Part shown: one piece after another, positions 13,003 to 40,021 of the stretch
Position numbering within the stretch: the stretch's first letter is position 1
Layout: each line of letters opens with the position of its first letter
NCBI GenBank assembly: GCA_030873995.1
Contig: GCA_030873995.1_4701.1
Strand: one strand, 5' to 3'
Source of the DNA: a phage
Length of the DNA: 45,609 nt
Notes under the pieces: generated by a model
Databases searched by the model: none
What the model was told of the DNA's origin: nothing
What the model saw: only the letters and a program-made list of their open reading frames with translations
Position numbers and translations under genes: made by a program

Positions 13003-13048
13003 TATACTCAAGGTTTGTCTCACATGTGAGACATGCCTTTATGAATGA
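13003..13048 (+). promoter_or_regulatory. RNase III-type processing site candidate
   Basis: GTTATACTCAAGG - extended hairpin around palindrome 13019..13034 - CCTTTATGAAT; same flanks recur at 39984..40021. Confidence 0.45.
13019..13034 (+). repeat. 16-bp perfect palindrome GTCTCACATGTGAGAC (copy 1)
   Basis: Read directly; flanks extend the stem. Confidence 0.9.
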
Positions 13049-13066
13049 CATTAATTAGGAGGTAAC

Positions 13067-16000
13067 ATGGTTGATAGTATTAACCAAAATTGGGTGGCGG
13101 TGACTCAACGCAAGTTACCGCCTACCTTCTCTCAAGTTGCTGAAGCAGAGCGTAAGGCCGAAGCACAGAGAGCTAATGACAAAGTATTCCAAACAGCCAT
13201 AGAGAGTGAGTGGGCTTTGTATGGTGGACAACGTGCCTATGAACGCCACACTACAGAGTTTGCTGAACAAGAAGGTTATGAAGTACCTGAATCAACTAAG
13301 GATGAACTATCCAAGTTGTATGGGTATGAAATAGCGCAAGACATAGTCAAGAATGTGAAGTCTCCAGAAGAGTTGCAATTCCGTATGTCTAATGCTGCTG
13401 CGGATAAAGACAGAGCAGACATCTTAGCACGTAATGGTTTCACAGGTTTCAGCGCACAGATTGCTGCTGGTATTCTTGACCCTGTAGGTTGGGCGGCTTC
13501 TCTAGTAGCTGCACCTGTAGCTGGTGCTGTCAAAGTAGGTCGTCTAGGTAGGATTATCAAGACGGCTGCCTTATCTGGTGCTGAAAATGCTGCATTAGAA
13601 GCTGTGCTTGCACAAGGTGATTACCAGCGAGGTGTCGATGATGTACTGGCTGCTGCCGGGTTTGGTATGATTATGGGCGGTACTATTGGCGCTGCAACTA
13701 GGGAACGCATAGCCAGTGCTGGTTCTCGTACAGCGGCAGAGAGAGCAGAGGCTGTATTTGATGACTTGGACACCGTAGTAAAAGGTGCTGATGAGTTTGA
13801 CTCGTCTGCTGCTCGTGCTGTACGTGAGGCCATGGAGTATGACGCGTATATGGCAGCACGTAATTATGAACCACTTCGTGCAAGAGAGGTGGATGCAGAT
13901 ATGGCAATTCTATCTCACACAGACAACTTGAAAGCCAATGCGTCGGTAAGGATGAGTGCTAGTGAGAAAGGACTACTGAAGAAACAGATACGCCAACTGG
14001 AAGCAGAAGCAGCCACACTTAAGGGGAAGAAGATAGATGCTGTAGCAGAGGCTGCCGCCGCTAAGGGTGCACCTAAATCTGCTGCGGACAGATTGGATTT
14101 AGATGTTCAGAAGAAAGCACTGGCACGTAGATTCGATGAACCACTTGCTGATTTACAAGCGCGTCTTGATGAGTTGAATGCCAAGTTATCTCGTGCGAAC
14201 AATGTAGGTAAGGCTAAGGAGGAGCTTAAGAGATTCTCATCGCTGTCCCGTGAAGATCAAATAAAGGAACTAGGTTTAGACGCACCAATGCGTAAGGTGG
14301 AGATGACCCGTGCTGTACGAGATGCAGTAGCTGCAATCCGTGCCGAACGTAAGAAGACACCTACCGAGATACATGCTGAACAAGCTGCAGAAGAGGTAAT
14401 CAAGCAAAAGGCAGATGACTCTATTGGTGCTAAACGTGTTGAAGGTTCAGAGATTGCAGGCGAGCAGTTTGACTTATCTAAAAACATGGAAGAACTTATG
14501 GATGACTTGGCACGAGAAGCATATCAGTCAGAGGTGCGGCCTATTAATCTTAAGGGTCTAGGTTCAGTGTCTTCTGTGATTCTTAACTCAGAGAATCCTG
14601 TGTTCCGAGGTCTAGGTCTTCGTCTGCTTGAAAACGCTCAAGGTGGTGCATACCAAGGTAAGACAGCTTCTATCTTATCAGATGTGTATGGCAACCTTAT
14701 TCGTCATGCAGAACGTAACAGGTACAATGATGGTTTCTCTCAATTCATCAAAGATAACAACCTACGTGCGGTAGATTATCTTAACCCTGCAACGACACGG
14801 GATTTCAATAATCAGATTTATACAGCAATTGTTCGTGGCATACCAGAAGATACACCTCGTGGTGTTAAACTGGCAGCAGAAGGTATCGCTGATAAACTCA
14901 AGAAAGCACTTGAGATTCGTAAGCAAGCAGGAGAGCATGGATTCGAAGATATACAATCTGCTAAGGATTACATCCCTGTTATCTATGACGGTATCAAGGT
15001 TACTGAGGCAGTTAACAAATTGGGGAGTAGTGAGGCTGTTATTCACTTACTATCCAAAGGTTACCAGACAGGTAAGTACAAACTTGGCAAGAAAGCTGCG
15101 GATGCCCTAGCAAAAGTACAGTACATTCGTGCATCGGACTCCACCCTCTCTAGTCGTGTTGCATTCGATAGGGTGGTATCCCAGCAGCAGCAGGCTCAAT
15201 TGATTGAGGATCTGAAGAAAGCAGGGGTACCAGACCATATCATTGATAATTTCATTGAAGGTACTGAATTAGCAGAAATGGCTGAATCGGTATCCAATCG
15301 AGCTAAAGCTAGTATGGGTATTAATACGCAAGCCGAATATGGCGGTTTGAAGGTGCAGGATTTGCTTAATACAAACGTAGGGGAGCTAGCGGAGAACTAC
15401 GGCAAAGAGGCAGCGGGTGGTGCTGCATTGGCTGCTATGGGTTTCCCTACTCGCCAATCTGTGCTGAACGCAATAGATGCCGCAGAACGCGCAGGCCGCA
15501 ATATGGCGGGGTCAAATGCTAAGGCAATCAAACAGCTTAGGTCTGAGGCAGAAATGCTCAGAGATGCCGTTAAGTTAATTTACGGCAACACTATCGACGC
15601 CGACCCTAACTCTGGAATTGTCAGGGGTACTCGACGTGTCCGTGAGATTACAGGGTTGTTACGATTAGGCCAAATGGGCTTCGCTCAGATACCTGAACTG
15701 GCACGTGCAATCTCTAAGATGGGACTAGGGACTGTGCTGAAGTCTGTACCTGCCACTAAGTTCTTACGTTCGAGAGCGGCTCGTAAAGGTGGCACTGCTC
15801 AGGGTGAGTTGCTTGAACCTGAACTGCGAGAAATGGAGGAACTCTTAGGTTATATCGGGGAGGATAACTGGCTCACAGGGTGGAATGTCCGTCATGATGA
15901 GTTCGGAGAAACTGCGGATAACCTAGGTAAGCTGTCTGCTATTATTGATAACGGATTAGCTATGGGTAGTAGAATCAACACAATACTATCTGGTTTTAAA

Positions 16001-16870
16001 GCAGTACAAGGTGGCTCAGAGAAGATTATAGCTCGCTCTATCAATAAGCGACTAAAGCAACATTTGATGGGGGAGCGACAGTTACCCAAAGCAGATCTTG
16101 AAGAAGTTGGCCTAAGTGAAGATGTCATGAAGAGACTTAAGCGTCACTTTGATGATAACCCAATGTACGCTGATTACAAAGGTGAAAAAGTTCGTATGAT
16201 GAACTTTGATGCTATGGAGCCAGACCTGAGAGAGACAGTGGGTGTTGCTGTGCGAAGAATGTCAGGACGTCTTATTCAGCGTAACTTCATAGGAGATGAA
16301 GGTATCTGGATGAATAAATGGTGGGGCAAGGCATTGACCCAGTTTAAGTCATTCTCTATTGTCTCTATTGAGAAACAGCTAATCCATGATTTACGAGGAG
16401 ATAAGATTCAGGCTGCACAGATCCTTGCATGGTCTACCTTACTAGGCTATGCATCTTATGCACTACAGATGCAGATGCAAGCAATTGGTAGGGAGGACAG
16501 AGACAAGTTCTTGAGGGATAAGTTCGAGACACAGAATATCGCTATGGGTGTCTTTAATAAACTCCCACAAGTTGCAGGCTTCGGTCTTGCTGGTGATGCT
16601 TTGGCAACATTTGGCCTAATGCCAGACTCTATGATGCAAGCGCCTGGACGTATGGGGTTCCGTCAGCAAGGGTTTGGTGATTTGGTAGCAGGTGCTGGTG
16701 TAATCAGTGATACAGTTAATTTGTCACAAGCACTAGTTAAGTACGCCAACGGAGATGATGATGTCTCTACTCGGCAGTTGGTGGACAAGGTTCGTCGCCT
16801 TGTTCCTTTGGCAAATACTATTGGTGTAGGTCAGATGACTAAAGCCAGTGTAGACTTATTGGAGGATTGA
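13067..16870 (+). CDS. internal virion (core/ejection) protein, gp16-like
   Basis: 1267 aa, position and size as T7 gp16; AGGAGG RBS. Confidence 0.7.
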   Translation: MVDSINQNWVAVTQRKLPPTFSQVAEAERKAEAQRANDKVFQTAIESEWALYGGQRAYERHTTEFAEQEGYEVPESTKDELSKLYGYEIAQDIVKNVKSPEELQFRMSNAAADKDRADILARNGFTGFSAQIAAGILDPVGWAASLVAAPVAGAVKVGRLGRIIKTAALSGAENAALEAVLAQGDYQRGVDDVLAAAGFGMIMGGTIGAATRERIASAGSRTAAERAEAVFDDLDTVVKGADEFDSSAARAVREAMEYDAYMAARNYEPLRAREVDADMAILSHTDNLKANASVRMSASEKGLLKKQIRQLEAEAATLKGKKIDAVAEAAAAKGAPKSAADRLDLDVQKKALARRFDEPLADLQARLDELNAKLSRANNVGKAKEELKRFSSLSREDQIKELGLDAPMRKVEMTRAVRDAVAAIRAERKKTPTEIHAEQAAEEVIKQKADDSIGAKRVEGSEIAGEQFDLSKNMEELMDDLAREAYQSEVRPINLKGLGSVSSVILNSENPVFRGLGLRLLENAQGGAYQGKTASILSDVYGNLIRHAERNRYNDGFSQFIKDNNLRAVDYLNPATTRDFNNQIYTAIVRGIPEDTPRGVKLAAEGIADKLKKALEIRKQAGEHGFEDIQSAKDYIPVIYDGIKVTEAVNKLGSSEAVIHLLSKGYQTGKYKLGKKAADALAKVQYIRASDSTLSSRVAFDRVVSQQQQAQLIEDLKKAGVPDHIIDNFIEGTELAEMAESVSNRAKASMGINTQAEYGGLKVQDLLNTNVGELAENYGKEAAGGAALAAMGFPTRQSVLNAIDAAERAGRNMAGSNAKAIKQLRSEAEMLRDAVKLIYGNTIDADPNSGIVRGTRRVREITGLLRLGQMGFAQIPELARAISKMGLGTVLKSVPATKFLRSRAARKGGTAQGELLEPELREMEELLGYIGEDNWLTGWNVRHDEFGETADNLGKLSAIIDNGLAMGSRINTILSGFKAVQGGSEKIIARSINKRLKQHLMGERQLPKADLEEVGLSEDVMKRLKRHFDDNPMYADYKGEKVRMMNFDAMEPDLRETVGVAVRRMSGRLIQRNFIGDEGIWMNKWWGKALTQFKSFSIVSIEKQLIHDLRGDKIQAAQILAWSTLLGYASYALQMQMQAIGREDRDKFLRDKFETQNIAMGVFNKLPQVAGFGLAGDALATFGLMPDSMMQAPGRMGFRQQGFGDLVAGAGVISDTVNLSQALVKYANGDDDVSTRQLVDKVRRLVPLANTIGVGQMTKASVDLLED

Positions 16871-17829
16871 TGAGTTACACATTCACTGAACATACAGCGA
16901 ATGGCACTCAAACTACTTTCCCCTTCCGGTTCGCTGGGAGAGACAAGGGGTACTTGAGGGCTTCTGATATTTTAGTTGAAGTAAGAAATGATGGCGTGTG
17001 GAACACGGTAAGTGGTTGGACACTTACAGGTACTAACCAGATAACCTTTAATGTACCGCCAGCGGCAAATACAAAACTTCGTATCAGGCGCGTTGTAGAG
17101 AAAGAAGAACCTTACGCCGAGTTTGACCGTGGTGTAACCTTGGATATGAAATCTCTCAATAACTCCTTTATACATCTTTTGGAAGTATCTCAGGAGCTAC
17201 TGGATGGTTTCTATCCAGATGGTTACTTTGTAAAGCAAGATGTATCTTGGGGTGGACATAAGATTACTGATTTGGCTGATGGCACAAATCCGGGAGATGC
17301 AGTAAATAAAGGACAGCTTGATTCCATCGACAAGAAGCATACAGATTGGAACGCCAAACAGGACATTGAGATTGCTGGTCTTAAAGCTGGTATGACTTCT
17401 GGTATTGCGCACAGAACTGTTCCTTGGTACACGATAGCCCAAGGTGGTGAGATTTCCGTAAAGCCCCCTTATGAATTTCAAGATGCACTAGTTTTCCTTA
17501 ATGGGGTATTGCAGCACCAAATTGTAGGCGCATACTCTATAAGCAACAACACTATCACTTTCGCAGAGCCGCTTGTGGCTGGTACAGAGGTGTATGTGTT
17601 GGTAGGTAGTCGTGTTGCTACATCTGAACCTAATATTCAGTTAGAGTTGAATTTTGACTTAGTAGAAGGCCAACAAGTAGTAAAGATTGGCTCTGCATTT
17701 AAGTATATTGAGGTTTATCTTGATGGACTATTACAACCTAAACTTACTTATCGGGTAGATGGTGACACTGTTACTTTCTCAGAGGGAGTGCCAGAATGCC
17801 GGATGACTGCTAAGATTATCACAGAATAA
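16870..17829 (+). CDS. tail fiber adaptor (gp17 N-terminal-domain-like)
   Basis: 320 aa resembling only the N-terminal tail-attachment domain of T7 gp17; no receptor-binding part. Confidence 0.7.
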   Translation: MSYTFTEHTANGTQTTFPFRFAGRDKGYLRASDILVEVRNDGVWNTVSGWTLTGTNQITFNVPPAANTKLRIRRVVEKEEPYAEFDRGVTLDMKSLNNSFIHLLEVSQELLDGFYPDGYFVKQDVSWGGHKITDLADGTNPGDAVNKGQLDSIDKKHTDWNAKQDIEIAGLKAGMTSGIAHRTVPWYTIAQGGEISVKPPYEFQDALVFLNGVLQHQIVGAYSISNNTITFAEPLVAGTEVYVLVGSRVATSEPNIQLELNFDLVEGQQVVKIGSAFKYIEVYLDGLLQPKLTYRVDGDTVTFSEGVPECRMTAKIITE

Positions 17830-17838
17830 GGAGGTGGG

Positions 17839-17991
17839 ATGATTAACTCCGAACTGGTAGATAATGGTGTGAAGCTTGCGCCACCTGCACTCGTATCAGG
17901 TGGGTACTTCCTCGGTATCAGTTGGGATAACTGGCTCGTAATTATGACCCTTATTTACACAGTAATGCAAAATGGGTTGGTTTATTTATGA
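17839..17991 (+). CDS. holin, T7 gp17.5-like
   Basis: 50 aa, one TM segment; GGYFLGISWDNWLVIMTLIYTVMQNG resembles the T7 gp17.5 core as recalled; AAGGAGGTGGG RBS. Confidence 0.6.
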   Translation: MINSELVDNGVKLAPPALVSGGYFLGISWDNWLVIMTLIYTVMQNGLVYL

Positions 17992-18027
17992 GAAGGTCCA
18001 GACTATAAAGAAGAGGAGAAAAGCTAA

Positions 18028-18459
18028 ATGTACTCAGAAGTTGAAAGAGCAGGATACATCATAAGAGAAGATGGTGTTATCTTGAGCAAGAAGGGACAAC
18101 CGATGGTTGGTGCTATTCGTGAAAGAGGATACCGCACAGTAACATTAAGGATAGATAATAAATCCAAGACTTATAAAGTACATAGGTTGACTGCATGGAA
18201 GCATGTGCCGAACCCTCATAACTATAAGGTTGTTAACCATAAAGACCGCAACCCATCTAATTGCCATAAAGATAACCTAGAGTGGTGCACTCAACAGGAA
18301 AACACTATACATGCACACTATGGTTGTCTTGACATACAAGATAAAATAGATGAAGCCAAAGCATTAAGAAGCCAAGGCTGGTCTTATCCTAAAATCGGTA
18401 AATACTTTGGGTTAGACCATAAGACTGTTTGGTATTGGATTAATGGGAGAAGAACTTGA
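18028..18459 (+). CDS. HNH homing endonuclease
   Basis: 143 aa; motif HKDRNPSNCHKDNLEWCTQQEN; inserted between holin and terminase small subunit. Confidence 0.75.
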   Translation: MYSEVERAGYIIREDGVILSKKGQPMVGAIRERGYRTVTLRIDNKSKTYKVHRLTAWKHVPNPHNYKVVNHKDRNPSNCHKDNLEWCTQQENTIHAHYGCLDIQDKIDEAKALRSQGWSYPKIGKYFGLDHKTVWYWINGRRT

Positions 18460-18755
18460 GCGTACATAACAAACATGCAGCTACAGAAGACGAGGTTGGC
18501 ATTCTGCATGGTGCTATTACCAAAATCTTCAATAAGAAAGCACAGGCAATACTGGACACTATAGAAGAAGACCCTGATGCAGCACTACATTTAGTCTCTG
18601 GTAAAGACATTGGTGCTATGTGTAAGTGGGTACTGGATAACGGCATCACTGCTACACCTGCTGCACAGCAGGAAGAGTCCAAGTTATCTAAGCGCCTCAA
18701 GGCTATCCGAGAGGCATCCAGTGGTAAGATAATTCAATTCACTAAGGAGGATTGA
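18456..18755 (+). CDS. terminase small subunit (gp18-like), start codon uncertain (TTG)
   Basis: 99 aa ORF immediately upstream of and overlapping the terminase large subunit. Confidence 0.5.
   Translation: MSVHNKHAATEDEVGILHGAITKIFNKKAQAILDTIEEDPDAALHLVSGKDIGAMCKWVLDNGITATPAAQQEESKLSKRLKAIREASSGKIIQFTKED
18547..18569 (+). promoter_or_regulatory. phage-RNAP promoter inside the terminase small subunit gene
   Basis: CAATACTGGACACTATAGAAGAAG; matches consensus from -14 to +6, diverges at -17 to -15. Confidence 0.55.
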
Positions 18756-21087: not shown

Positions 21088-21104
21088 TAAAAGGAGAAGA
21101 TAAT

Positions 21105-24314: not shown

Positions 24315-24398
24315 GCAACAGGCAGTGCGTAAGCACTGCTTTCACGCAACTTTTCTTAAAGGTTATCATGGTGGTAGCCTTTCAGAAAAGGAGGTTAC

Positions 24399-26582
24399 AT
24401 GCTTCAAAGATTAGGGGCAATGTTTGTTCGGTACAAAAATAAAGTAGGTAATGCTATCGAGCGTACACTACAAAGTAAATTACAGGATGTAGTAAGTGTA
24501 AAGGATTATGGCGCTATTGGTGATGGAGTATATCGTTCACTTGGTGCTAAATTTACCACGTTAAGTATGGCACAAGTAGTATACCCGCATGCGGAAAGTT
24601 TAACTCAATCGCAAGATTGGGCGGCTATTCAGGCTGCACTTAATTCTCACTCAAAAGTGTACATTCCAGCAGGTAAGTACATGCTATCTGATACCATTGA
24701 GATGCGCGGCGGTCAAACTCTGCAAGGTGACGGTATTGATTCTTGGGTTGCAGGTTATGCTGGGTTTGTAAAAGATAATCAAGGCACTCACCTCATAATG
24801 GTGGGAGATGGAAATAAGAAGTATACATTAGATCATGTATCTAACTTCGATGTAGAAGGTGGTGTCATAGACAACCCAGCGAAGAGTGATGCTTATACTG
24901 CCACTGCACCTTCCCCTAATTACTCATTTACTAACTTCACTAACGCTAACGCCTCTGGTGCACAACGTGCTACATTGAAACCTTTCAGCGTAGCATTACG
25001 TTGCACAGGTCACGGTGGTGTTTATCTTCGTGACTTCCGTATTGTGCCTAATCACAGAGGGCAAGAAGGTTATAAGGATGAGTTGTCAACTGCATTAGGG
25101 GACGCATGGGATGTAGGTATTTGGCTGGAGAATACATCTGACTCAGTGTTATCTTCTGTGCAAGCAGTTGGTTACTGGCGTATTGCAGGTGTTATGAAGA
25201 CTTGTATTCCACAAGAGGGTTCCTTTGTTGGTGGAGAGCGTGATAGGATATACAATTGCACATTACAAGGTTATCGTGGTTTCTTAGCACGTTCGCATGA
25301 TACTTACCAAGTAGAAGAAGTATCAGGTAACACTGTATCGATTAAGTGGTCTGCATCTCACACTTTCGAACCTTCTGGTAAAGTTCGTATCCAAGGGAAA
25401 GACCGTAGTTATACTAGCCTGTCTGTATCTGGTGACAAATTAGTCTTCAATGGTATTGACGATGTATCAGGTATTAATACCAATAGCTATGTGAGAGTTT
25501 CAGGGTCTTCATTCGGAATGTCTGCTACTCAACTAAATAACACATACATCGCTGCATTAAACCATCATGCTCGCTTGCCAGCAACCTCTAATCTTTTAGA
25601 TAATAGGTTTTCTACTTCGGCAGCTTGCTATGAAGTTGCAGGTGAACCAATTCGTGCCATAAAATTATCTAACTGTACTGTCATTACTTGGGATGACATC
25701 TTAGGTATGACTGGTGGTATTCGGGATTTCCAGACGACAGATACTTACTTCGAGTCTCAGCCTTTCCGTACTTCTGTGCAAGGCTTGGCAAGCACCACAC
25801 AACCTGCTGGTTCTCGCATGATTGCACTTCGTGGACGTCAAGGTTCTAAAACTACAGGATATCAAGCTATCGGTTGTACTTATGGGCCAGGTGTAGACTT
25901 AAGTCCTCGTTATGAAAGCGATGTATCTCGTTACACAACTTCAGGTGGTATGTTCAATCCAAGAGAAGATTTGAACACAACTAAGCAGTTACCAATGAGG
26001 CAAGACGCTACTGAGCTATCTTCTACTTCTGACTTATTCCTTACACATGCTGTAGGGCGGAAGGCCTATGTTGGCGCTACCTCTGGTGATGCAACGCTTC
26101 AATCTAGAACTGGATCATTGAATATCCAATCAGGACTTCGTGTACGGATTGGTGGCACTGATGGTAGTGGTTGGTATATTGCTGACAGTGCTAAGTTGAC
26201 ACCTACTGCTGACAATGCAAGGGCTTGTGGACAGCCTAATGGACGATGGACTGTTGTCTATGCTGTTAATGGTACAATCCAGACTTCTGATGGTAGATTC
26301 AAGGAAATCCTTGAGATTGAACAGGCAGAACTTGATGCTGGTCTTGAATTATCAGCAAACCTAATTAAGTATCGGTGGAATGGGGAAGATAAAATTCACT
26401 TTGGTTGCATAGCACAAGAAGTGATGTTAATACTGGAGAAACATGGCCTAGACCCATTACAATATGATATGGTTCAGTATGATGAGGAGGCAGACATCTT
26501 TGGGGTAAACTATGCTGAACTCAACAGCTTCTGTATTGCAGCATTATCGAGGAAGTTAAATGCCATTAATAAAATCAGTTAA
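24399..26582 (+). CDS. tailspike 2 with C-terminal intramolecular chaperone (peptidase S74-like) domain
   Basis: 727 aa; VKDYGAIGDG signature; C-terminal SDGRFKE...HFGCIAQE; AAGGAGG RBS. Confidence 0.75.
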   Translation: MLQRLGAMFVRYKNKVGNAIERTLQSKLQDVVSVKDYGAIGDGVYRSLGAKFTTLSMAQVVYPHAESLTQSQDWAAIQAALNSHSKVYIPAGKYMLSDTIEMRGGQTLQGDGIDSWVAGYAGFVKDNQGTHLIMVGDGNKKYTLDHVSNFDVEGGVIDNPAKSDAYTATAPSPNYSFTNFTNANASGAQRATLKPFSVALRCTGHGGVYLRDFRIVPNHRGQEGYKDELSTALGDAWDVGIWLENTSDSVLSSVQAVGYWRIAGVMKTCIPQEGSFVGGERDRIYNCTLQGYRGFLARSHDTYQVEEVSGNTVSIKWSASHTFEPSGKVRIQGKDRSYTSLSVSGDKLVFNGIDDVSGINTNSYVRVSGSSFGMSATQLNNTYIAALNHHARLPATSNLLDNRFSTSAACYEVAGEPIRAIKLSNCTVITWDDILGMTGGIRDFQTTDTYFESQPFRTSVQGLASTTQPAGSRMIALRGRQGSKTTGYQAIGCTYGPGVDLSPRYESDVSRYTTSGGMFNPREDLNTTKQLPMRQDATELSSTSDLFLTHAVGRKAYVGATSGDATLQSRTGSLNIQSGLRVRIGGTDGSGWYIADSAKLTPTADNARACGQPNGRWTVVYAVNGTIQTSDGRFKEILEIEQAELDAGLELSANLIKYRWNGEDKIHFGCIAQEVMLILEKHGLDPLQYDMVQYDEEADIFGVNYAELNSFCIAALSRKLNAINKIS

Positions 26583-28557: not shown

Positions 28558-28653
28558 TTAGATGGTAGCTTCTTAGTCTGGATAGGTTAAACCTAGGGTA
28601 TTCTTTTGAGTACCCTATAATGTAACCTAACTAACTAAATGAGGATTAATAAC

Positions 28654-29013
28654 ATGGCTATGTCTAATATGACTTACTCTCAGGTTTACAACAACGCTCA
28701 TGCTGCATTAGTTGAACGTATCTGGAATGATGCTATTGATTGTATTGATAACGCACATGATGCAATCCATGATGTGGCGGATAGTGCTGTACCAATCTAT
28801 TATGCTGACATCTTCTCCGTGATGGCGAGTGAAGGAATTGATCATTTCTTCGAAGACTCCGGCCTGATGCCAGACACTAAGGATGTAACGGTAGTATTGC
28901 AAGCCCGTATCTATGAGCAACTCACAATTGATCTATGGGAACGTGTTCAGTATATGATTGTTGAATACATCAACTCCGCCGAATATTTAGAAGAAGAAGA
29001 AGAGGAAGAATAA
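28654..29013 (+). CDS. ocr: Ocr (T7 gp0.3) DNA-mimic anti-restriction protein
   Basis: MAMSNMTY...[49 protein letters not shown] closely matches T7 Ocr as recalled; poly-Glu tail; GAGGA RBS. Confidence 0.9.
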
Positions 29014-29128: not shown

Positions 29129-29141
29129 CACTATAAGAGAA
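29119..29141 (+). promoter_or_regulatory. variant phage-RNAP promoter candidate with A at +1
   Basis: ATTTAGCTGACACTATAAGAGAA; three mismatches at -12 to -10; lies in the early region upstream of the RNAP gene. Confidence 0.4.
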
Positions 29142-29204
29142 GGCTTAACAAGGCGTTGCTACGGTAGCGCCTGATTAAACTTTCACTTACTAGGAGTTAA
29201 GACT

Positions 29205-29432
29205 ATGGATTTAGATAGCATCATTATGGCATTTGCTCTTATTGGCTTAAGCTGGTGCTCCTATCACCTTTACCGTGAGTTCTTATTTGATAAAGCTAAA
29301 CGCAAACTAAGAAAGGAAGGCGGTAATTACCTTTGTGTAAGAGGTGGGCTTGTAGAATACATTGCACCTAACGGCACGGAATGCGCCATTAGCAAAGATG
29401 CATTTATAGAAACGTGGCATTACATCAAGTAA
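29205..29432 (+). CDS. early small membrane protein (75 aa)
   Basis: AGGAG RBS; N-terminal TM helix IIMAFALIGLSWCSY. Confidence 0.55.
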   Translation: MDLDSIIMAFALIGLSWCSYHLYREFLFDKAKRKLRKEGGNYLCVRGGLVEYIAPNGTECAISKDAFIETWHYIK

Positions 29433-29495
29433 CTAGCCTATAGCCTACCTGAGTGGGCTATGTGATATTTACTTACACTATATAAGGTGACTATT

Positions 29496-30419
29496 ATGAC
29501 TACTGAAAACACCCTCCTGTCTGTTCGTGAAGCTGCAACCGCTGAAATCAAGCAGCACTTAGACAATATCGGCACTTCTTACATCAAAGTTGGCGCTTGT
29601 CTGAATGAATTACGCGGTGATTTCGAAGGTCAAAAAGACTTTTTAGCTTATGTAGAATCAGAGTTTGGCATCAAGAAAGCACAATGCTACAAGCTGATGA
29701 GTGTAGCCCGTGTCTTTGAAGGAGACGAACGCTTTAAAGGTGTGGCTATGCGTGTAATGCTGGCGCTTGTTCCTTTCGCTGATGAAAATATAATCATGGA
29801 GAAGGCCGCAGAACTCGCCGCAGCTGGCAAGCTGGACACTAATGCCGTAAATGCCCTGATTGATCCTAAGAAAGAGACAAAGGCCGAGACGGTACAATCT
29901 AAGGCTGAGACAGTAAAACCGCAGGAGAACGCGACTGAGGCCGCAGAAACTATGCAAGGACATGCAACCTTTGAGGATTTCATCTTAGAGAAGGCGAAGG
30001 AGGAGTTACAAAGTGTGCCGCCAGTAAGTGAGTCGGGTAACGACGAATCCGCACCGTGGGAAGATGAAAGCAAGCCGGAAGGCACAAAGGCAGCACCGCT
30101 GGATAACACGGTTAATACCGAAAACGCCGCTATTGCTGGTCTGCTGGCACAAATTAAAGCACTGACCGAGCAATTACAGGCAGCTAATGACCGCATTGCC
30201 TCCTTAAGCAGCGCACGCGAAAGCAAGAAAGCAGCCGCGCCTATGCTGCCGCAATTCAAATCTTCCTGCTTCTATGCTCGCTTAGGTTTAAGCGCTGAGG
30301 AGGCAACGAAGAAAACAGCAGTTAACAAGGCACGCCGCGAACTGGTTAAGCTAGGCTACGGCGAAGGCCATGAAGCATGGCCCTTAATCTCTGAGGCAGT
30401 AGAAGAATTAACTAAGTAA
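29496..30419 (+). CDS. early protein of unknown function (307 aa) immediately upstream of the RNAP gene
   Basis: AAGGTG RBS; Ala/Glu-rich low-complexity middle; occupies the T7 gene 0.7 position but has no kinase motifs. Confidence 0.6.
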   Translation: MTTENTLLSVREAATAEIKQHLDNIGTSYIKVGACLNELRGDFEGQKDFLAYVESEFGIKKAQCYKLMSVARVFEGDERFKGVAMRVMLALVPFADENIIMEKAAELAAAGKLDTNAVNALIDPKKETKAETVQSKAETVKPQENATEAAETMQGHATFEDFILEKAKEELQSVPPVSESGNDESAPWEDESKPEGTKAAPLDNTVNTENAAIAGLLAQIKALTEQLQAANDRIASLSSARESKKAAAPMLPQFKSSCFYARLGLSAEEATKKTAVNKARRELVKLGYGEGHEAWPLISEAVEELTK

Positions 30420-30482
30420 CCTTATCGGTGGCATCTTCTTAGGTGTCACCTATTAAGGTTTCTTTCACTAGGAGTAAACAAG

Positions 30483-33110
30483 ATGCAAGACCTACACGCT
30501 ATTCAACTTCAACTTGAAGAAGAAATGTTTAACGGAGGTATCCGTCGCTTTGAAGCGGACCAACAACGCCAGATTGCATCCGGTAATGAATCCGACACGG
30601 CATGGAATCGCCGCTTATTGTCTGAGTTAATCGCGCCAATGGCTGAAGGCATTCAGGCATACAAGGAAGAGTATGAAGGTAAAAGAGGCCGTGCACCGCG
30701 TGCATTAGCTTTCATTAACTGCGTAGAAAACGAAGTGGCAGCATATATCACGATGAAAATCGTTATGGATATGCTGAACACGGATGTAACCTTGCAGGCT
30801 ATAGCCATGAATGTAGCTGACCGCATTGAGGACCAAGTACGTTTTAGCAAGCTGGAAGGTCACGCCGCCAAATACTTTGAGAAAGTTAAGAAGTCACTTA
30901 AGGCAAGTAAGACTAAATCATATCGCCATGCGCACAACGTAGCGGTCGTGGCTGAGAAGTCAGTAGCTGACCGTGACGCTGATTTCTCTCGCTGGGAGGC
31001 GTGGCCTAAAGATACCTTGCTACAAATCGGTATGACCTTGCTAGAAATACTGGAAAATAGTGTATTCTTCAATGGTCAGCCTGTCTTTCTTCGCACCTTG
31101 CGCACTAATGGTGGCAAGCATGGCGTTTACTACTTACAGACTAGCGAACACGTGGGTGAATGGATAACTGCATTTAAAGAGCACGTAGCTCAGCTGAGTC
31201 CAGCCTATGCGCCTTGCGTTATTCCTCCTCGTCCGTGGGTTTCTCCGTTTAATGGTGGCTTCCATACCGAGAAAGTGGCGAGTCGTATTCGTCTGGTTAA
31301 AGGAAACCGCGAGCACGTCCGCAAGCTGACCAAAAAGCAAATGCCAGCGGTTTACAAGGCTGTTAACGCTTTGCAGGCGACTAAGTGGCAGGTTAATAAA
31401 GAGGTTTTGCAGGTAGTAGAGGACGTTATCCGTCTCGACCTTGGTTATGGTGTGCCTTCCTTTAAACCGCTCATCGACCGTGAGAACAAGCCAGCTAATC
31501 CAGTGCCGTTAGAGTTCCAGCACCTGCGAGGCCGTGAACTTAAAGAGATGCTAACGCCGGAACAATGGCAAGCCTTCATCAACTGGAAAGGCGAATGTAC
31601 CAAGCTGTATACCGCTGAAACTAAGCGCGGCAGCAAGTCGGCGGCAACCGTTCGTATGGTCGGGCAGGCCCGTAAATACAGCCAGTTTGACGCAATATAC
31701 TTCGTGTATGCACTGGATAGCCGTTCACGCGTTTATGCGCAATCTAGCACGCTCTCGCCGCAATCAAACGACTTAGGCAAGGCATTGCTCCGTTTTACCG
31801 AAGGGCAGCGTCTTGATAGCGCTGAGGCGCTTAAGTGGTTTTTGGTGAACGGGGCGAATAACTGGGGTTGGGATAAGAAAACTTTTGACGTGCGCACCTC
31901 TAACGTGCTGGATGGCGAATTTCAAGACATGTGCCGCGACATTGCAGCCGATCCGCTGACCTTCACTCAATGGGTAAATGCTGATTCCCCTTACGGCTTC
32001 CTTGCATGGTGCTTTGAATATGCGCGTTATCTGGATGCACTGGATGAAGGCACGCAAGACCAATTCATGACGCACCTACCCGTCCATCAAGACGGTAGTT
32101 GCTCTGGTATCCAGCACTATAGCGCGATGTTACGCGATGAAGTAGGTGCGAAAGCAGTAAACCTTAAGCCTTCTGACTTCCCTCAAGATATTTATGGCGC
32201 GGTTGCGCAGGTTGTTATCCAGAAGAATTACGCCTACATGAATGCAGACGATGCAGAGACTTTCACATCTGGAAGCGTCACACTTACAGGTGCAGAACTG
32301 CGTAGCATGGCTAGTGCGTGGGATATGATAGGAATAACTCGCGGATTGACCAAAAAGCCCGTAATGACACTACCTTATGGCAGCACACGTCTAACCTGCC
32401 GTGAATCAGTGATTGATTATATCGTTGATTTGGAAGAAAAAGAGGCCCAACGAGCTATTGCGGAAGGGCGTACCGCCAATCCTGTACACCCTTTTGATAA
32501 TGACCGTAAGGACAGCCTGACACCTAGCGCAGCTTATAACTATATGACAGCTTTAATCTGGCCTTCTATTTCGGAAGTGGTTAAAGCTCCTATAGTGGCA
32601 ATGAAAATGATTCGTCAGCTTGCCCGTTTCGCAGCTAAAAGGAATGAAGGCTTAGAGTATACCTTGCCTACTGGCTTCATCTTGCAACAAAAGATTATGG
32701 CTACTGATATGCTCCGCGTATCCACTTGCCTGATGGGAGAAATCAAGATGAGTCTACAGATTGAAACGGACGTAGTGGATGAAACGGCTATGATGGGCGC
32801 TGCTGCTCCTAACTTTGTGCATGGTCATGATGCCAGTCACCTTATCTTAACAGTCTGCGACCTTGTTGATAAAGGGATTACATCTATCGCAGTCATTCAT
32901 GATTCTTTCGGTACTCACGCAGGCCGTACAGCCGATCTTCGTGATAGCTTAAGGGCAGAAATGGTGAAGATGTATCAAGGCCGTAATGCCCTGCAAAGCC
33001 TGTTAGATGAGCATGAAGAACGCTGGTTAGTAGACACCGGAATCCAAGTGCCAGAGCAAGGAGAGTTTGACCTTAACGAAATCTTAGTATCTGACTATTG
33101 CTTCGCATAA
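30483..33110 (+). CDS. single-subunit DNA-dependent RNA polymerase (T7/SP6 type)
   Basis: 875 aa; [17 protein letters not shown] and HDSFGT catalytic motifs; C-terminus ends CFA. Confidence 0.95.
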
Positions 33111-33118
33111 TATTAATA

Positions 33119-33149
33119 GGCCATTCCTTCGGGAGTGGCCTTTTCTTTT
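33119..33149 (+). terminator. intrinsic terminator after the RNAP gene (early terminator analog)
   Basis: 9-bp stem GGCCATTCC/GGAGTGGCC with UUCG tetraloop, then TTTTCTTTT. Confidence 0.8.
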
Positions 33150-33199: not shown

Positions 33200-33201
33200 T
33201 T

Positions 33202-33380: not shown

Positions 33381-33385
33381 TTCGT

Positions 33386-33408: not shown

Positions 33409-33433
33409 ACTAACTTACTTTGGAGATTTAACC

Positions 33434-33562
33434 ATGCGTAACTTTGAGAAGATGACCCGTAAAGCTAACCGTTTTGACATGGAAGAAGGGCAGAAGAAAG
33501 GCAAGAAGCTGAATAAACCTGTCCGTGACCGTGCATCTAAACGCGCTGCGTGGGAGTTCTAA
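33434..33562 (+). CDS. T7 gp1.1-like small basic protein
   Basis: 42 aa MRNFEKMTRKANR... matches the T7 gp1.1 N-terminus as recalled; same position after RNAP and twin promoters. Confidence 0.6.
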   Translation: MRNFEKMTRKANRFDMEEGQKKGKKLNKPVRDRASKRAAWEF

Positions 33563-33565
33563 GTT

Positions 33566-35554: not shown

Positions 35555-35715
35555 TGGAAATTATTAAACCAGTATTGAATATCGGTATTGAGATCCTATT
35601 CATGCTTGTGATCGCAGATTATGCTGCACGATATGGCTTCAAGAAAGCAGTGAAACTTATCGTTGCATCTGGTTTTATGATGTCAATGTTCTTTATTGTA
35701 ACACGCCTTATCTAG
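35554..35715 (+). CDS. small membrane protein (53 aa)
   Basis: TAATG coupling to the primase/helicase stop; two hydrophobic segments. Confidence 0.45.
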   Translation: MEIIKPVLNIGIEILFMLVIADYAARYGFKKAVKLIVASGFMMSMFFIVTRLI

Positions 35716-35732
35716 TGTATTTATCAGGGCTT

Positions 35733-35748
35733 GTCTCACATGTGAGAC
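35733..35748 (+). repeat. 16-bp perfect palindrome (copy 4), extended stem
   Basis: Read directly. Confidence 0.9.
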
Positions 35749-35787
35749 AGGCTCTTATTAAGTACATTAAATAACTGGAGATTGATT

Positions 35788-36471
35788 ATGTATAAATTAG
35801 TATTGAATGTAGGTGATTATGTTCGTAACATCAATGAAGCCTCACGTCGTTATCGTTGCCGTGGTGTAGTGGCTCGTGTAAGTGAGAACATGTATCATGT
35901 AGAATATGATGATGGTATTAAGGCTTCTTATCACAAGAAAACCGCACATAAATATCTTGAAAAGGTTGTAGAGGTAAACAATCAATGTAAGTGCATACAT
36001 GATGAGGTTTGCGATAAATGTGCTCGCCAGATGCTTAAGAATTTCCTAGCCCCTCTTTATTATGGTGCTGGTCCTCAAACACTAGCAGAGTACATGGCAG
36101 AAAAGAAAACCACACTCAAGAAAGAGCGTCGCAATGTAATCACTGGTAAGACTCAAAGTGGGATGATTAAGCAATGTGGCACTGCATTAGGTGTTACACA
36201 GTTCAATACTCGTGCATTGGGTAAATCCACAGGGCAAGCTATGGTGAAAATTGGTGAAGCTATGATGCACCCAAATGTGCCTGTGCGAATCTTGGATGTT
36301 GACCATGCAATCACAGAGCATGGCACACCACGGCGTGTAGCTAATAATCATTTCGCCGACACTATAGAAGGTATTATTCGTAAGCAAGGGTTGAAGGGTC
36401 TTCACATCTTAAATGGTGAAGAATTACTGTACCTACCTATCGTTACTGAAGAAACATACGTGAATATCTAA
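35788..36471 (+). CDS. hypothetical protein (227 aa)
   Basis: GGAG RBS before ATG 35788; Cys cluster CKCIHDEVCDKC; contains a degenerate promoter-like site. Confidence 0.55.
   Translation: MYKLVLNVGDYVRNINEASRRYRCRGVVARVSENMYHVEYDDGIKASYHKKTAHKYLEKVVEVNNQCKCIHDEVCDKCARQMLKNFLAPLYYGAGPQTLAEYMAEKKTTLKKERRNVITGKTQSGMIKQCGTALGVTQFNTRALGKSTGQAMVKIGEAMMHPNVPVRILDVDHAITEHGTPRRVANNHFADTIEGIIRKQGLKGLHILNGEELLYLPIVTEETYVNI
36350..36372 (+). promoter_or_regulatory. degenerate promoter-like site inside CDS 35788..36471
   Basis: ATTTCGCCGACACTATAGAAGGT; four mismatches at -13 to -10. Confidence 0.25.
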
Positions 36472-36481
36472 GGAGTTAATC

Positions 36482-36700
36482 ATGACTAAGGTATTAATTT
36501 ATATGCGTGGACCTCATAAATGCTATGCAGTTGTAGCACCAAATGGCGTTAAGCCTTATCGTACTTCAAAAAGATTGGCATTAATAGGTGCTAGTAGTAG
36601 TGCAAGTTTCCAAATGGAACTTTTTGGTCATTGGACTGAAAGGCAATTCCGTGAGGATTTTAAAGTCATTGGCAGTTTCATGGTGAAATATGCAGAATAA
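36482..36700 (+). CDS. hypothetical protein (72 aa)
   Basis: AAGGAG RBS. Confidence 0.5.
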   Translation: MTKVLIYMRGPHKCYAVVAPNGVKPYRTSKRLALIGASSSASFQMELFGHWTERQFREDFKVIGSFMVKYAE

Positions 36701-36866
36701 ACATAGTCTTAGAATGTTCGATGGTCATGAAGACCTGCAAGCCAAGATTACTAACCAAGCCTTCCTGTTCGCACAGTTAACTATGGCTGAGGCCAAGAAG
36801 AATAGTCTCACTCGTGAACAGGTTATCAAGGAAAGTGAAGTGAAACGTAAGATTCGCAGTCGATAA
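36690..36866 (+). CDS. small ORF (58 aa)
   Basis: Overlaps the upstream stop; followed by an extended hairpin; below track threshold. Confidence 0.3.
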   Translation: MQNKHSLRMFDGHEDLQAKITNQAFLFAQLTMAEAKKNSLTREQVIKESEVKRKIRSR

Positions 36867-36876
36867 GTCAAGGGTT

Positions 36877-36892
36877 GTCTCACGTGTGAGAC
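36877..36892 (+). repeat. 16-bp near-palindrome GTCTCACGTGTGAGAC (copy 5), extended stem
   Basis: Read directly. Confidence 0.9.
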
Positions 36893-36923
36893 AGCCTTTT
36901 ATCATGTTGATTGGAGGTGCATT

Positions 36924-37031
36924 ATGCCACGTGATTATGATTCTGATTGGGACTACTATGACTCAATGAATCCAAAACCAGAACGTTCAGATGATTACTA
37001 CGAAACAGAGGCAATGTATGAAAACTATTAA
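36924..37031 (+). CDS. small acidic Tyr/Asp-rich peptide (35 aa)
   Basis: GGAGGTG RBS; MPRDYDSDWDYYDS... Confidence 0.35.
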   Translation: MPRDYDSDWDYYDSMNPKPERSDDYYETEAMYENY

Positions 37032-37236
37032 AGTCAGTAAGGTTTGCTCTTGCGGTAAAGGTTATCGCAGTCGTATTGATGGTAAGTGTGGACATTGTAG
37101 GTCTAAGAAAGAGGCTGCTTTGTTTGACAAGTACCACAATGAATTAGCCTATAACTACCCACATCTAACACCTAATTCTTTATTAGGGCTTGGTTATAGG
37201 GCTAAATACTTTGGAGCAATCTATGAAATCAATTGA
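37018..37236 (+). CDS. small zinc-ribbon-like protein (72 aa)
   Basis: CSCG...CGHC motif; AGAGG RBS; overlaps the DNAP start. Confidence 0.45.
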   Translation: MKTIKVSKVCSCGKGYRSRIDGKCGHCRSKKEAALFDKYHNELAYNYPHLTPNSLLGLGYRAKYFGAIYEIN

Positions 37237-39769
37237 TTGGAAGAAGGAGGCAGAAGGTCGTATCCTCGTGATGGATGCGGAAGCTAAAGGACTCCTTGAC
37301 GCTATCCGATATGGACACCGTGAAGATGTGCATATCATTTGCTGCATGGATTTGCTTACTACCGAGGAGTTTCTCTTCTTTGACCCGTATGAGATGCGTG
37401 ACCCTGAAGCAAGAGAACGCCTGAAGGAATGGGAAGGTCATCAAGATGGAACCTTGGTTGACGGTGTTAACTTCCTGAAGCACTGTGAGGCTATTGTGTC
37501 GCAGAACTTCCTAGGGTATGACGGTCTTCTCTTTGAGAAAGCATTCCCTGATATTTGGAAAGGCTTTAACTATACCGAGAAGCGCGGTAAGGGCAGACTC
37601 CGTGCTGACCTGTGTCCGGTGCGAGTCATGGATACGCTGGTGATGAGTCGCCTGTTAAACCCCGATAGACGCCTTCCTCCGCAAGCATATGCCAAAGGTA
37701 TGGGTAACGTCGCCCCTCACTCAATTGAGGCGCACGGCATCCGTATAGGTCGCTATAAACCGGAGAACGAGGACTGGTCTAAACTAACTGACCACATGGT
37801 TCACCGTGTACGTGAGGACGTGGCGATTGGTCGTGACTTGTTCCTCTGGCTCTTTAACGGGGAATGGATGGAGCACAAACGCCGTGGCGTGAATAAACGC
37901 ACGGGCCTAGGCATTGAGACAGCCTTCCACATGGAGTCCATTGTGGCGCTGGAGATGAGCCGTCAGGCCGAGCGCGGGTTCCGTCTGGACATCGACAAGG
38001 CTTTGGCCCGATGCGAAGAATTGGACGCTAAGATTGATGAGACAGTCGCAGCGTTCCGCCCTCACATGCCTATGCGTATCAAGTCTAAACCTTTTAAACC
38101 GGAAGAAAAGAATGAAGTATGCCAACGCGCAAATGAGTATGGAGCTAGCAACAATATACCTACTGTCCTTGACCCCTCACACTTTCTTCATGCCGAGAGA
38201 CGAGGAGATCGCAAGACAGTATGGAGTGTCACTACTAAGTCTGGTGATTGGTCGGCTAGTGTCAAGAAAGACTTTCCTCACCTTAGAGGAAACCGTAATG
38301 ACACGCCAAGTATCAAGTGGATTGGTGCTTACTCGCCTGTTACTTTCGAAGAGATTCCCTTGGGTAACAGGGATACAGTTAAGCAAGTGCTCTATGATTA
38401 TGGATGGAAAGGTGTTGAATTTAACGATACCGAGCAAGCGCATCTCGATGAGTATGGCGTATTACCAAAACCTTGGAGTGGAAAGATAAATGAAAAGTCT
38501 CTTACTTTATGGCAAGAGAGAGCCGCACGTGAAGGTAAAACAGTACCCGATTGGTGCTTGGGTATCGCTGCATGGTACATACTCGTATCCCGTCGTGGTC
38601 AGATACTCAACCGTGGTGACGTTGAAGCCTTCAACGAGAAGGGAACGTGGCCCTCGCAGGCTGGTGTACGAAAGTGTCGCGGCCTTGTACCTGTAGCATT
38701 CAACAAGGAGCTAGGAATCAATGCGCAGCAATACTACGAAAGGTACGGATGCTGGCCTACGTCAGACAAGGATGACGGGGAGTGGCGTGTTCCAGCTGTT
38801 GCTATTAGCATTGGCACTTCTACGTTCCGTATGCGTCATCGTAACGTGGTTAATATTCCTGCCCGTGGCTTGTATCCTTTACGTGATTTATTCATAGCAG
38901 GTAAAGGCAAGCTAATCCTTGGTTGTGACGGTGCAGGTCTTGAACTGCGCGTCCTGTCTCACTTCATGAATGACCCTGAGTACCAAGAGATTGTATTGCA
39001 TGGTGACATCCATACACATAACCAGATGAAGGCTGGTCTTCCTAAGCGTGACATGGCGAAGACGTTTATATACGCTTTCCTCTATGGCTCTGGTATAGCC
39101 AACCTTGCAGCAGTATGTGGTGTTACCGAGGAAGAAATGAAGGAAGTTGTGGCAAGATTCGAGATTGAACTGCCGTCTCTTGCACGTCTTCGTGAGAATG
39201 TTATCGCACAAGGTAACAAGTTTGGCTACCTGCAAGCACCTGATGGGCATTGGGGTCGCATCCGCATGTCTGGTGGTGAACTTAAAGAGCACACGATGCT
39301 TAACGTATTACTCCAGATGACTGGCTCTTTGTGTATGAAATATGCATTAGTCAAGGCATTTGCAGTAATGCGCAAGGAAGGTGTAGCCTTGGATGCTATG
39401 GGAAATCCTTGTGGTGTGGCTAACGTGCATGATGAAATCCAGATGGAAGTTCCTGAAGAGGAGGTCTTGTATCTTAACTACGACCTACCTTTCACCTTAG
39501 ATGGGTTCGAAACAGAGAAGGCTGCCGTGCAAGCAGTGTTCGATGCAGAGGAGAAACGTGTTCATGTGGATTCTGAAGGACGTATGTGGTCTGCTGCAAA
39601 CCTCGTTAGTGTTGATGCTGATGCTGGTGTATTGCATTGCCAGCGCCGTTATCACCGTGCAGGTCATATCATTGCCGACGCCATGACTTGGGCAGGGCAG
39701 TATCTGAAGATGCGTTGCCCGATGGCAGGCGAATATAAGATTGGCGCAAGTTGGAAGGAAACACACTGA
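37223..39769 (+). CDS. DNA polymerase (family A, gp5-like) with 3'-5' exonuclease domain
   Basis: Exo motif VMDAEAKGL; pol motifs DGAGLELR, RDMAKTFIYAFLYGSG, VHDEIQ; start placed at RBS-supported ATG 37223. Confidence 0.9.
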   Translation: MKSIDWKKEAEGRILVMDAEAKGLLDAIRYGHREDVHIICCMDLLTTEEFLFFDPYEMRDPEARERLKEWEGHQDGTLVDGVNFLKHCEAIVSQNFLGYDGLLFEKAFPDIWKGFNYTEKRGKGRLRADLCPVRVMDTLVMSRLLNPDRRLPPQAYAKGMGNVAPHSIEAHGIRIGRYKPENEDWSKLTDHMVHRVREDVAIGRDLFLWLFNGEWMEHKRRGVNKRTGLGIETAFHMESIVALEMSRQAERGFRLDIDKALARCEELDAKIDETVAAFRPHMPMRIKSKPFKPEEKNEVCQRANEYGASNNIPTVLDPSHFLHAERRGDRKTVWSVTTKSGDWSASVKKDFPHLRGNRNDTPSIKWIGAYSPVTFEEIPLGNRDTVKQVLYDYGWKGVEFNDTEQAHLDEYGVLPKPWSGKINEKSLTLWQERAAREGKTVPDWCLGIAAWYILVSRRGQILNRGDVEAFNEKGTWPSQAGVRKCRGLVPVAFNKELGINAQQYYERYGCWPTSDKDDGEWRVPAVAISIGTSTFRMRHRNVVNIPARGLYPLRDLFIAGKGKLILGCDGAGLELRVLSHFMNDPEYQEIVLHGDIHTHNQMKAGLPKRDMAKTFIYAFLYGSGIANLAAVCGVTEEEMKEVVARFEIELPSLARLRENVIAQGNKFGYLQAPDGHWGRIRMSGGELKEHTMLNVLLQMTGSLCMKYALVKAFAVMRKEGVALDAMGNPCGVANVHDEIQMEVPEEEVLYLNYDLPFTLDGFETEKAAVQAVFDAEEKRVHVDSEGRMWSAANLVSVDADAGVLHCQRRYHRAGHIIADAMTWAGQYLKMRCPMAGEYKIGASWKETH

Positions 39770-39885
39770 TGGATAGGCTTGACATTGTTTACCTATTCTT
39801 CACTTTCTTTCTTACACTCCTTATGCTTGCTTGTTATGGGAGTATGAGACTAGATATACCTGATGAAGAAGAGGGTTACGACTAA
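39769..39885 (+). CDS. tiny membrane peptide (38 aa), paralog 1
   Basis: ATG overlaps the DNAP stop (TGATG); hydrophobic core then acidic DIPDEEEGYD tail. Confidence 0.4.
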   Translation: MDRLDIVYLFFTFFLTLLMLACYGSMRLDIPDEEEGYD

Positions 39886-39983
39886 TGCAAACTGCTTTTA
39901 TTATTCTTGGTATCATATTATTTATGGTAGTATTCTGGGCTTTCTCTGGCATTGACCCAGATTGTGATGGTAACTACGACTGA
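39885..39983 (+). CDS. tiny membrane peptide (32 aa), paralog 2
   Basis: TAATG coupling; hydrophobic core then GIDPDCDGNYD tail similar to 39769..39885. Confidence 0.4.
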   Translation: MQTAFIILGIILFMVVFWAFSGIDPDCDGNYD

Positions 39984-40021
39984 GTTATACTCAAGGTCAC
40001 TTACGAGTGGCCTTTATGAAT
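39984..40021 (+). promoter_or_regulatory. RNase III-type processing site candidate
   Basis: GTTATACTCAAGG - hairpin GGTCACT-TACG-AGTGGCC - CCTTTATGAAT. Confidence 0.45.

Follow-up and report, generated by a model that had tools for sequence, protein, structure and literature searches.

Two box-flanked hairpins in an SP6-like phage genome resemble the RNase III processing sites of phage T7

The DNA analysed in this study is contig GCA_030873995.1_4701.1 of GenBank assembly GCA_030873995.1, a phage stretch of 45,609 nucleotides (nt) that is referred to below as the window, and the elements of interest are two irregular hairpins, site 1 and site 2, which lie at gene boundaries and are framed by the same pair of sequence boxes. 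The window is the genome of an SP6-like phage in circularly permuted form. A 2-kb stretch around site 1 shares 99.8% identity with Escherichia phage LL11 (Autographiviridae, Molineuxvirinae, Vectrevirus) and about 77% with Salmonella phage SP6. The open reading frame (ORF) map placed all long ORFs of the window on the + strand, and the 10 matches to the SP6/K1-5-type promoter TTACTGGACACTATAGAAG were also all on the + strand, with 0.01 matches expected by chance.

Site 1 occupies the 67-nt gap (13000-13066) that separates two large genes for internal virion proteins, gp41 and gp42 in LL11, which in the window run from 10057 to 12999 and from 13067 to 16870. The whole irregular hairpin spans 12997..13053 on the + strand, with a predicted fold of -27.1 kcal/mol (z = -2.4). 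Its lower stem consists of 9 base pairs (bp) joining 12997-13005 with 13045-13053, and above it an internal loop sets ACUC (13006-13009) opposite UUAUGA (13040-13044). The upper stem pairs 13010-13022 with 13027-13039, giving 13 pairs with one mismatch, and is closed by the loop CAUG. The 5' box GTTATACTCAAGG (13001..13013) covers the top of the lower stem, the ACUC strand of the loop and the start of the upper stem, and the 3' box GCCTTTATGAAT (13035..13046) is an exact match that aligns with CCUUUAU^G of T7. The apex of this hairpin (13017..13032, + strand) is one copy of a multi-copy 16-bp palindrome, GTCTCACATGTGAGAC, which is taken up again below.

Site 2 is found after the DNA polymerase operon. 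Two small ORFs follow the DNA polymerase gene (37190-39769), and the lower stem of site 2 starts at the TGA stop codon (39981-39983) of the second one; the non-coding stretch that holds the site extends over 39984-40138. The whole irregular hairpin, 39981..40027 on the + strand, has a predicted fold of -26.5 kcal/mol (z = -4.1), and none of 200 shuffled sequences folded as well. Here the lower stem has 8 bp (39981-39988 with 40020-40027) plus 2 more (39978-39979 with 40029-40030), the internal loop sets ACUC (39989-39992) opposite UUAUGA (40015-40019), and the upper stem has 9 bp (39993-40001 with 40006-40014) closed by a UACG tetraloop. Both boxes are exact matches, the 5' box at 39984..39996 and the 3' box, which has homology with T7 R1.1, at 40010..40021. 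A phage RNA polymerase promoter of the type given above (40054..40072, + strand) lies 33 nt downstream of site 2.

A first-pass annotation of this DNA, made from the sequence, had claimed that both flanking boxes are common to the two loci and surround differing hairpins. This was borne out, as both boxes are exact at both loci and the joint pattern CTCAAGG-N6-30-CCTTTAT matched the window twice, only at 13001-13046 and 39984-40021, with 0.00 matches expected from 100 shuffles. The second locus was placed correctly by that annotation, whereas the first lies 2 bases to the left of the 13003..13048 that it gave. The inserts between the boxes are unlike each other (TTTGTCTCACATGTGAGACATG versus TCACTTACGAGTGG). 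The likeness of the two sites also reaches past the boxes, and the five lower-stem pairs nearest the loop are nearly equal (GUUAU/AUGAC versus GUUAU/AUAAC).

The same annotation had pointed to a resemblance of the boxes to the flanks of T7 ribonuclease III (RNase III) sites, and several comparisons uphold it. When the box pattern was searched in the T7 genome, it was found only at 863-890, 1438-1468 and 5858-5887, just upstream of genes 0.3, 0.5 and 1.1. Those matches end exactly at 890, 1468 and 5887, which we take to be the cleavage coordinates of R0.3, R0.5 and R1.1 (Dunn and Studier 1983). RNase III sites are absent from the annotation of the T7 GenBank records examined. The predicted folds of both window loci could be superimposed on the T7 sites, with a shared layout of a lower stem of 8-9 pairs, a 4-nt/5-nt internal loop (ACUC/UUAUGA), an upper stem that starts from AAGG:CCUU, and a small loop. 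The AAGG:CCUU pairs stand directly above the loop in both window sites and in T7 R0.3, R0.5, R1.1 and R4.7. In the literature, T7 R1.1 is a 60-nt RNA whose internal loop is asymmetric, with 4 nt against 5 nt, and RNase III cuts it in vivo and in vitro (PMC6121014). The helix of an RNase III substrate needs about two turns (PMC1540722), and the two-helix size of site 1 (9 + 13 pairs) and site 2 (8(+2) + 9 pairs) is as in T7 R0.3, R0.5 and R1.1. Over its first seven pairs (AAGGUCA/UGGCCUU) the upper stem of site 2 equals that of T7 R1.1, and site 1 departs from it beyond the fifth pair. Because of this identity with R1.1, the proximal and distal boxes of site 2 are probably permissive and free of inhibitory base pairs.

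The window sites are also like the T7 sites in being intergenic, in lying on the transcribed strand, often beside a phage promoter, and in carrying the same letters ACUC, AAGG:CCUU and UUAU^GA. T7 R1.1 and R4.7 adjoin promoters, as site 2 does. However, the phage of the window belongs to another subfamily, Molineuxvirinae, and its sites take other positions, one separating two genes for internal virion proteins and the other behind the DNA polymerase operon. The upper stem of site 1 is also longer than in T7 and is capped by a lineage-specific palindrome. It should be noted as well that cleavage is established for the T7 sites, whereas the window sites are known from sequence and predicted fold.

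A covariance model was then built from six aligned T7 sites (R0.3, R0.5, R1, R1.1, R4.7 and R18.5) and their common structure, with no SP6-like sequence included, and the entire window was scanned with it on both strands with filters off. Site 2 ranked first (39979-40029, 50.8 bits, E = 7.7e-10) and site 1 second (12996-13054, 40.1 bits, E = 3.3e-7), followed at rank 3 by a hairpin upstream of the ocr gene (28582-28630, 20.9 bits, E = 0.019). The top seven matches in the window were all on the + strand and all intergenic. As checks on the model, T7 R6.5, which had been left out of training, was recovered at 28-44 bits, and T7 R1.3 was recovered weakly, at 18 bits. Since T7 R1.3 scores just 18 bits, weak matches to this model can be real sites.

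Both sites recur in the corresponding places of SP6 and K1-5, and the Pectobacterium phage PP1 (Axomammavirus) has site 1 as well. For site 1, 18 orthologs were chosen by homology of the N-terminus of the downstream protein (55-100% amino-acid identity) and not by the boxes, and the upstream 77 nt were aligned with MAFFT. The loop letters ACTC and TTATGA, and AAGG, were invariant in all 18, while both stems varied. The first-pass annotation had counted a lack of box conservation in related phages, together with absent RNase III cleavage, against its proposal, and in the SP6-like orthologs the boxes are invariant in 18/18. In this alignment 97.7% of the cells were paired and eight pairs had changed on both sides; none of 500 shuffles reached the observed values, and partners that had been slid out of register paired at about 40%. 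G-U pairs were frequent in the orthologs. Because of this, and because the minus strand of site 2 scored only 15 bits with the T7-only model, the helix forms only in + sense RNA. A DNA-level palindrome was considered as an explanation of site 2 and rejected, given that the hairpin has U-G pairs and that its minus strand scores 15 bits against 50.8 bits.

The core of site 2 (about 50 nt) was essentially invariant, with two single-base variants among ten sequences, though both flanks had diverged. One lineage carries three compensated pairs in the upper stem (GGUCACU/AGUGGCC to GGCAUCU/AGGUGCC). A BLAST search with the 58-nt site 2 matched 217 phage records from two subfamilies, about 94 of them SP6-like (at least 90% identity) and about 123 T7-like (80-90%). 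The latter range of identity applies to T3 and to Yersinia, Vibrio (ICP3 and VP3) and Klebsiella T7-like phages (Studiervirinae). In the Vibrio phages ICP3 (HQ641340 27765-27819) and VP3 (JQ780163 27591-27645), the module was observed between internal virion protein genes B and C, a position that recalls site 1 between the internal virion protein genes of SP6-like phages. When viral contigs were scanned with the exact pattern, at least 120 loci were found, mostly on contigs of 38-45 kb, and among the pattern matches listed there were 105 distinct variants in which flanks and inserts covary. Across 116 distinct model matches in viral contigs, changes on both sides were seen for 18 of the 19 pairs. 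A separate observation from the viral contigs concerns IMGVR_UViG_3300032274_000058, a 16.4-kb contig of low G+C content, where at least nine strong matches to the T7 model were found within about 2 kb (~450-2420), an array that is unusually dense.

As judged from the sequence and from the T7-trained model, both loci are very probably processing signals for host RNase III that belong to the T7 class of R0.3, R0.5, R1.1, R4.7 and R18.5. The computed basis for this consists of sequence, fold, the match to the T7-only model, the same positions in SP6-like phages, compensatory changes and strand specificity. By analogy with T7, we infer that RNase III is the enzyme involved, which bond it would cut, and that mRNA stability and translation would be affected. 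The proposed course of events is that the genes, all of which lie on the + strand, give rise to long polycistronic RNAs that cross the sites, and that the RNA of each site would fold into two stacked helices of about 9 bp each, making roughly two helical turns in all, split by the asymmetric ACUC/UUAUGA loop. RNase III would bind this quasi-continuous helix, and the internal loop would limit it to one strand, so that a single cut is predicted in the 3' strand of the loop at UAU^G, after U13042 in site 1 (bond U13042/G13043) and after U40017 in site 2 (bond U40017/G40018). Internal loops of this kind are described as restricting RNase III to one phosphodiester and leaving protective 3' hairpins (PMC1540722). 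The upstream mRNA would then end in a stable hairpin and be shielded from 3' exonucleases, which would protect the internal virion protein gene at 10057-12999 in the case of site 1 and the DNA polymerase operon in the case of site 2. The downstream mRNA would receive a new 5' end, which for site 1 would precede by 15 nt the ribosome-binding site (AGGAGG at 13058) of the gene at 13067. Site 2 would also trim read-through transcripts just ahead of the promoter at 40054.

Most cellular and lambda substrates of RNase III are cut in both strands, leaving 2-nt 3' overhangs, and have no common sequence boxes. The phage sites differ from most of them in that the internal loop is expected to enforce a single cut. 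What the cellular and lambda substrates (ribosomal RNA precursor stems, rnc and pnp leaders, lambda N leader, sib) have in common with the phage sites is a helix of about two turns and the same enzyme (PMC1540722; PMC6212723).

Several points weigh against the assignment to RNase III. Cleavage data for this or any SP6-like phage were not found in the accessible records and literature. The complete invariance of the loop letters exceeds what RNase III is understood to need, and Calin-Jageman and Nicholson are said to have found in 2003 that loop identity matters little in vitro. Because the letters are fully invariant though their identity reportedly matters so little, an additional reader of the loop sequence is conceivable, and the ACUC/UUAUGA loop might be read by something besides RNase III. 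Part of site 1 may also be conserved for another reason, since its apex is a multi-copy palindrome whose other copies are not RNase III-like. Finally, the reactivity of RNase III cannot surely be predicted from sequence, and some motifs permit binding and block cleavage (PMC1540722).

Other explanations of the two hairpins were weighed against processing by RNase III. One is that they work without this enzyme, as barriers to 3' exonucleases or as signals at which the phage or host RNA polymerase pauses or terminates, with the likeness to T7 being one of hairpin design. Both sites are indeed stable hairpins at gene ends, site 2 stands just before a promoter, and the genome has clear terminator-like hairpins elsewhere. 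However, no U run follows either site and a terminator scan flagged neither of them, a conserved lower stem and an invariant internal loop would be purposeless in a simple barrier hairpin, and RNase III is known to cut the T7 elements that bear these boxes (PMC6121014). This explanation is therefore considered quite improbable. Intrinsic terminators and class I terminators of phage RNA polymerase had been tried as candidate classes and were rejected because the U run is lacking; the upper stem is followed by UUAUGAAU. A promoter scan found no sigma-70 promoter pattern at either site. The terminator-like hairpins seen elsewhere are three in number and have T runs, one at 33118-33141 after the RNA polymerase gene, one at ~6139-6165 after the major capsid gene and one at ~42164-42191 in the 42106-42416 gap, and they probably mark the ends of transcription units.

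The palindrome at the apex of site 1 was considered separately. The 16-bp palindrome GTCyMAC-RY-GTKrGAC has eight + strand copies in the window, starting at 13017, 27637, 33184, 33365, 34165, 35733, 36877 and 41630. Together with two flanking bases it forms the 18-mer TGTCTCACATGTGAGACA, for which there were 7 matches at up to 3 mismatches compared to 0.02 expected, and the eighth copy (27637) was found with a degenerate pattern. Copies cap site 1 and two further candidate sites, D and E, that are described below; three others lie 10, 13 and 23 nt upstream of phage promoter cores, and of the remaining two, one is close to the left end of the genome and the other within the coding part of the primase/helicase gene. 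The promoter-proximal copies are not RNase III-like because they have no extended lower stem. There are 8-9 copies per SP6-like genome, at positions common to the window, K1-5, SP6 and PP1, and the arms are genome-specific at nearly all copies: CTCAC/GTGAG in the window and K1-5, CTAAC/GTTGG in SP6 and CCAAC/GTTGG in PP1. Within the copy in the primase/helicase gene, one codon alternates between His and Asn according to genome type. In SP6 most copies pair only as + strand RNA, via U-G pairs. A scan of viral contigs with a narrow pattern found multiple copies only in SP6-like contigs; the single matches in other contigs were about as frequent as chance would give.

As far as the sequences can tell, this arm pattern would imply either concerted evolution or a co-evolving reader. 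Phage promoters, which co-evolve with their polymerase, provide an analogy for such a reader. It is possible, though rather doubtful, that sites 1, D and E are composite elements in which the palindrome is read, as DNA or RNA, by a sequence-specific phage or host protein that co-evolves with the sites. If true, the palindrome reader could couple mRNA processing to another function. A stronger form of this idea is that the elements are altogether the binding sites of a sequence-specific phage or host protein on DNA or RNA, with the palindromic apex and the loop letters being what is recognised and RNase III being incidental. The recurrence of the apex palindrome, its copies just upstream of three promoters and inside a coding region, the genome-specific arms and the 100% conservation of the loop letters are all in favor of such a protein. 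Nevertheless, site 2 lacks this palindrome family and its hairpin is like T7 R1.1, the shared boxes are not palindromic, the SP6 copies mostly behave as + strand RNA, and no candidate reader protein was identified. This stronger form is considered slightly less probable even than hairpins acting without RNase III, and a protein-binding role is conceivable solely for the palindromic apex of site 1.

Six weaker matches in the window, designated A to E and H, lie in other intergenic gaps and share the design of sites 1 and 2, and they lack the exact boxes. Site A (28582..28630, + strand) is the match at rank 3 and ends 24 nt upstream of the start codon of ocr (28654), so that it holds the position of T7 R0.3. 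The first-pass annotation had described an arrangement related to sites 1 and 2 in this place; a two-helix hairpin with a 4-nt/5-nt internal loop is present as that description would have it, whereas the sequence boxes are absent and CCUAGGG...CCCUAUAAUG stands in place of the T7 boxes. Site A is found at the same position in K1-5 and SP6, and it differs from that of K1-5 at two pairs, both compensated. The identification of the gene at 28654 as ocr was also correct, as Ocr (28654-29013) is 72% identical at the amino-acid level to the product of T7 gene 0.3, though between the RNA polymerases of this phage and of T7 the identity is only about 32%. Such a difference points to a fairly recent gene transfer between T7-like and SP6-like phages. 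Since the hairpin upstream of ocr is without the boxes of T7 R0.3, the processing site does not appear to have been transferred along with the gene. That transfer between subfamilies occurs, that phages differing on both flanks have almost the same site 2 core and that site 2 matches records from two subfamilies would all suit the modules being mainly DNA-level linkers, that is, islands of identity at gene boundaries for recombination or module exchange between co-infecting T7-like and SP6-like phages, but this is the least probable of the explanations considered, because the compensatory changes in both stems, the frequent G-U pairs and the strand-asymmetric scores argue for selection on the RNA fold and not on DNA identity, and a linker role could be a by-product compatible with RNA processing.

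The remaining matches are candidates, all on the + strand. Site B (29426..29475), between the genes at 29205-29432 and 29487-30419, is the weakest of them (13.7 bits, E = 1.1); K1-5 and SP6 have a hairpin in the corresponding place, with an upper stem that differs in sequence and still pairs. Site C (30413..30465; 19.3 bits, E = 0.045) lies just upstream of the RNA polymerase gene (30483-33110) and holds the position of T7 R1, with hairpins at the same position in K1-5, SP6 and PP1. Site D (35712..35770; 17.0 bits) follows the primase/helicase gene and has a stable predicted fold (-31.7 kcal/mol, z = -5.9), a lower stem UAGUGU...ACAUUA that resembles that of site 1, and the palindrome as its apex; its counterparts in K1-5, SP6 and PP1 occupy the corresponding place and carry compensatory changes. 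Site E (36856..36914; 20.0 bits, E = 0.032; fold z = -3.8), upstream of the HNH and DNA polymerase genes, is capped by the palindrome and has degenerate forms of the boxes (GUCAAGG ... CCUUUUAUCA), and its K1-5 ortholog scores 23.4 bits. Site H (24348..24396; 18.7 bits) is a near-perfect 18-bp hairpin with a 1x1 loop between two tailspike genes. It is conserved in K1-5, SP6 and PP1 and overlaps the ribosome-binding site of the gene at 24399, and its role could lie in RNase III processing or in translation. For each of these weaker sites, site A included, K1-5, SP6 or PP1 has a counterpart in the corresponding place, and compensatory changes are seen among these counterparts.

Two more hairpins came to light when every intergenic gap was scanned for folds. 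The first, 29129-29198, lies in the gap that separates the ocr region from the gene at 29205 and has two helices with a 2x2 internal loop; it was missed by the T7-trained model, and its predicted fold suggests that it could be another early processing site. The second, 40517-40577, has a lower stem made by the promoter sequence itself (ACACUAUAG...UGUAGUG), and therefore this hairpin would form only in read-through RNA from upstream promoters. Its design is reminiscent of the promoter-overlapping T7 sites R3.8, R6.5 and R13. Altogether, the genome probably has eight to ten processing sites, two of them with the T7 boxes, whereas in T7 the boxes are present in 5 of 10 sites.

These elements were sought in existing resources. 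Rfam gave no match in the whole window at gathering thresholds, and at the two loci permissive E-values gave only sub-threshold microRNA and small nucleolar RNA matches at the level of chance; there is no Rfam family for T7-type RNase III sites. The element is not annotated in the feature tables of LL11, SP6, K1-5 and PP1, nor in the records listed among the 217 BLAST matches. The accessible literature contained no RNase III sites in SP6-like phages and no mention of the palindrome sequence, although the 2004 genome papers for SP6 (Dobbins et al.) and K1-5 (Scholl et al.) were outside this search and an earlier mention is possible. This kind of RNA processing site has long been known, and the two sites reported here are most likely new, unannotated members of it.

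SP6-like phages are used in phage therapy and are the source of SP6 RNA polymerase. From the sites described here a working map can be drawn for this group, with about eight probable places of mRNA processing. The loop letters of T7 are fully kept in a subfamily with an RNA polymerase only about 32% identical to the T7 enzyme, which sharpens the old question of why the sequence of the loop, and not just its shape, is kept. The sites are predicted to set transcript ends and probably affect the stability and translation of neighboring genes, which would make them relevant when cassettes such as the tailspike genes are swapped.

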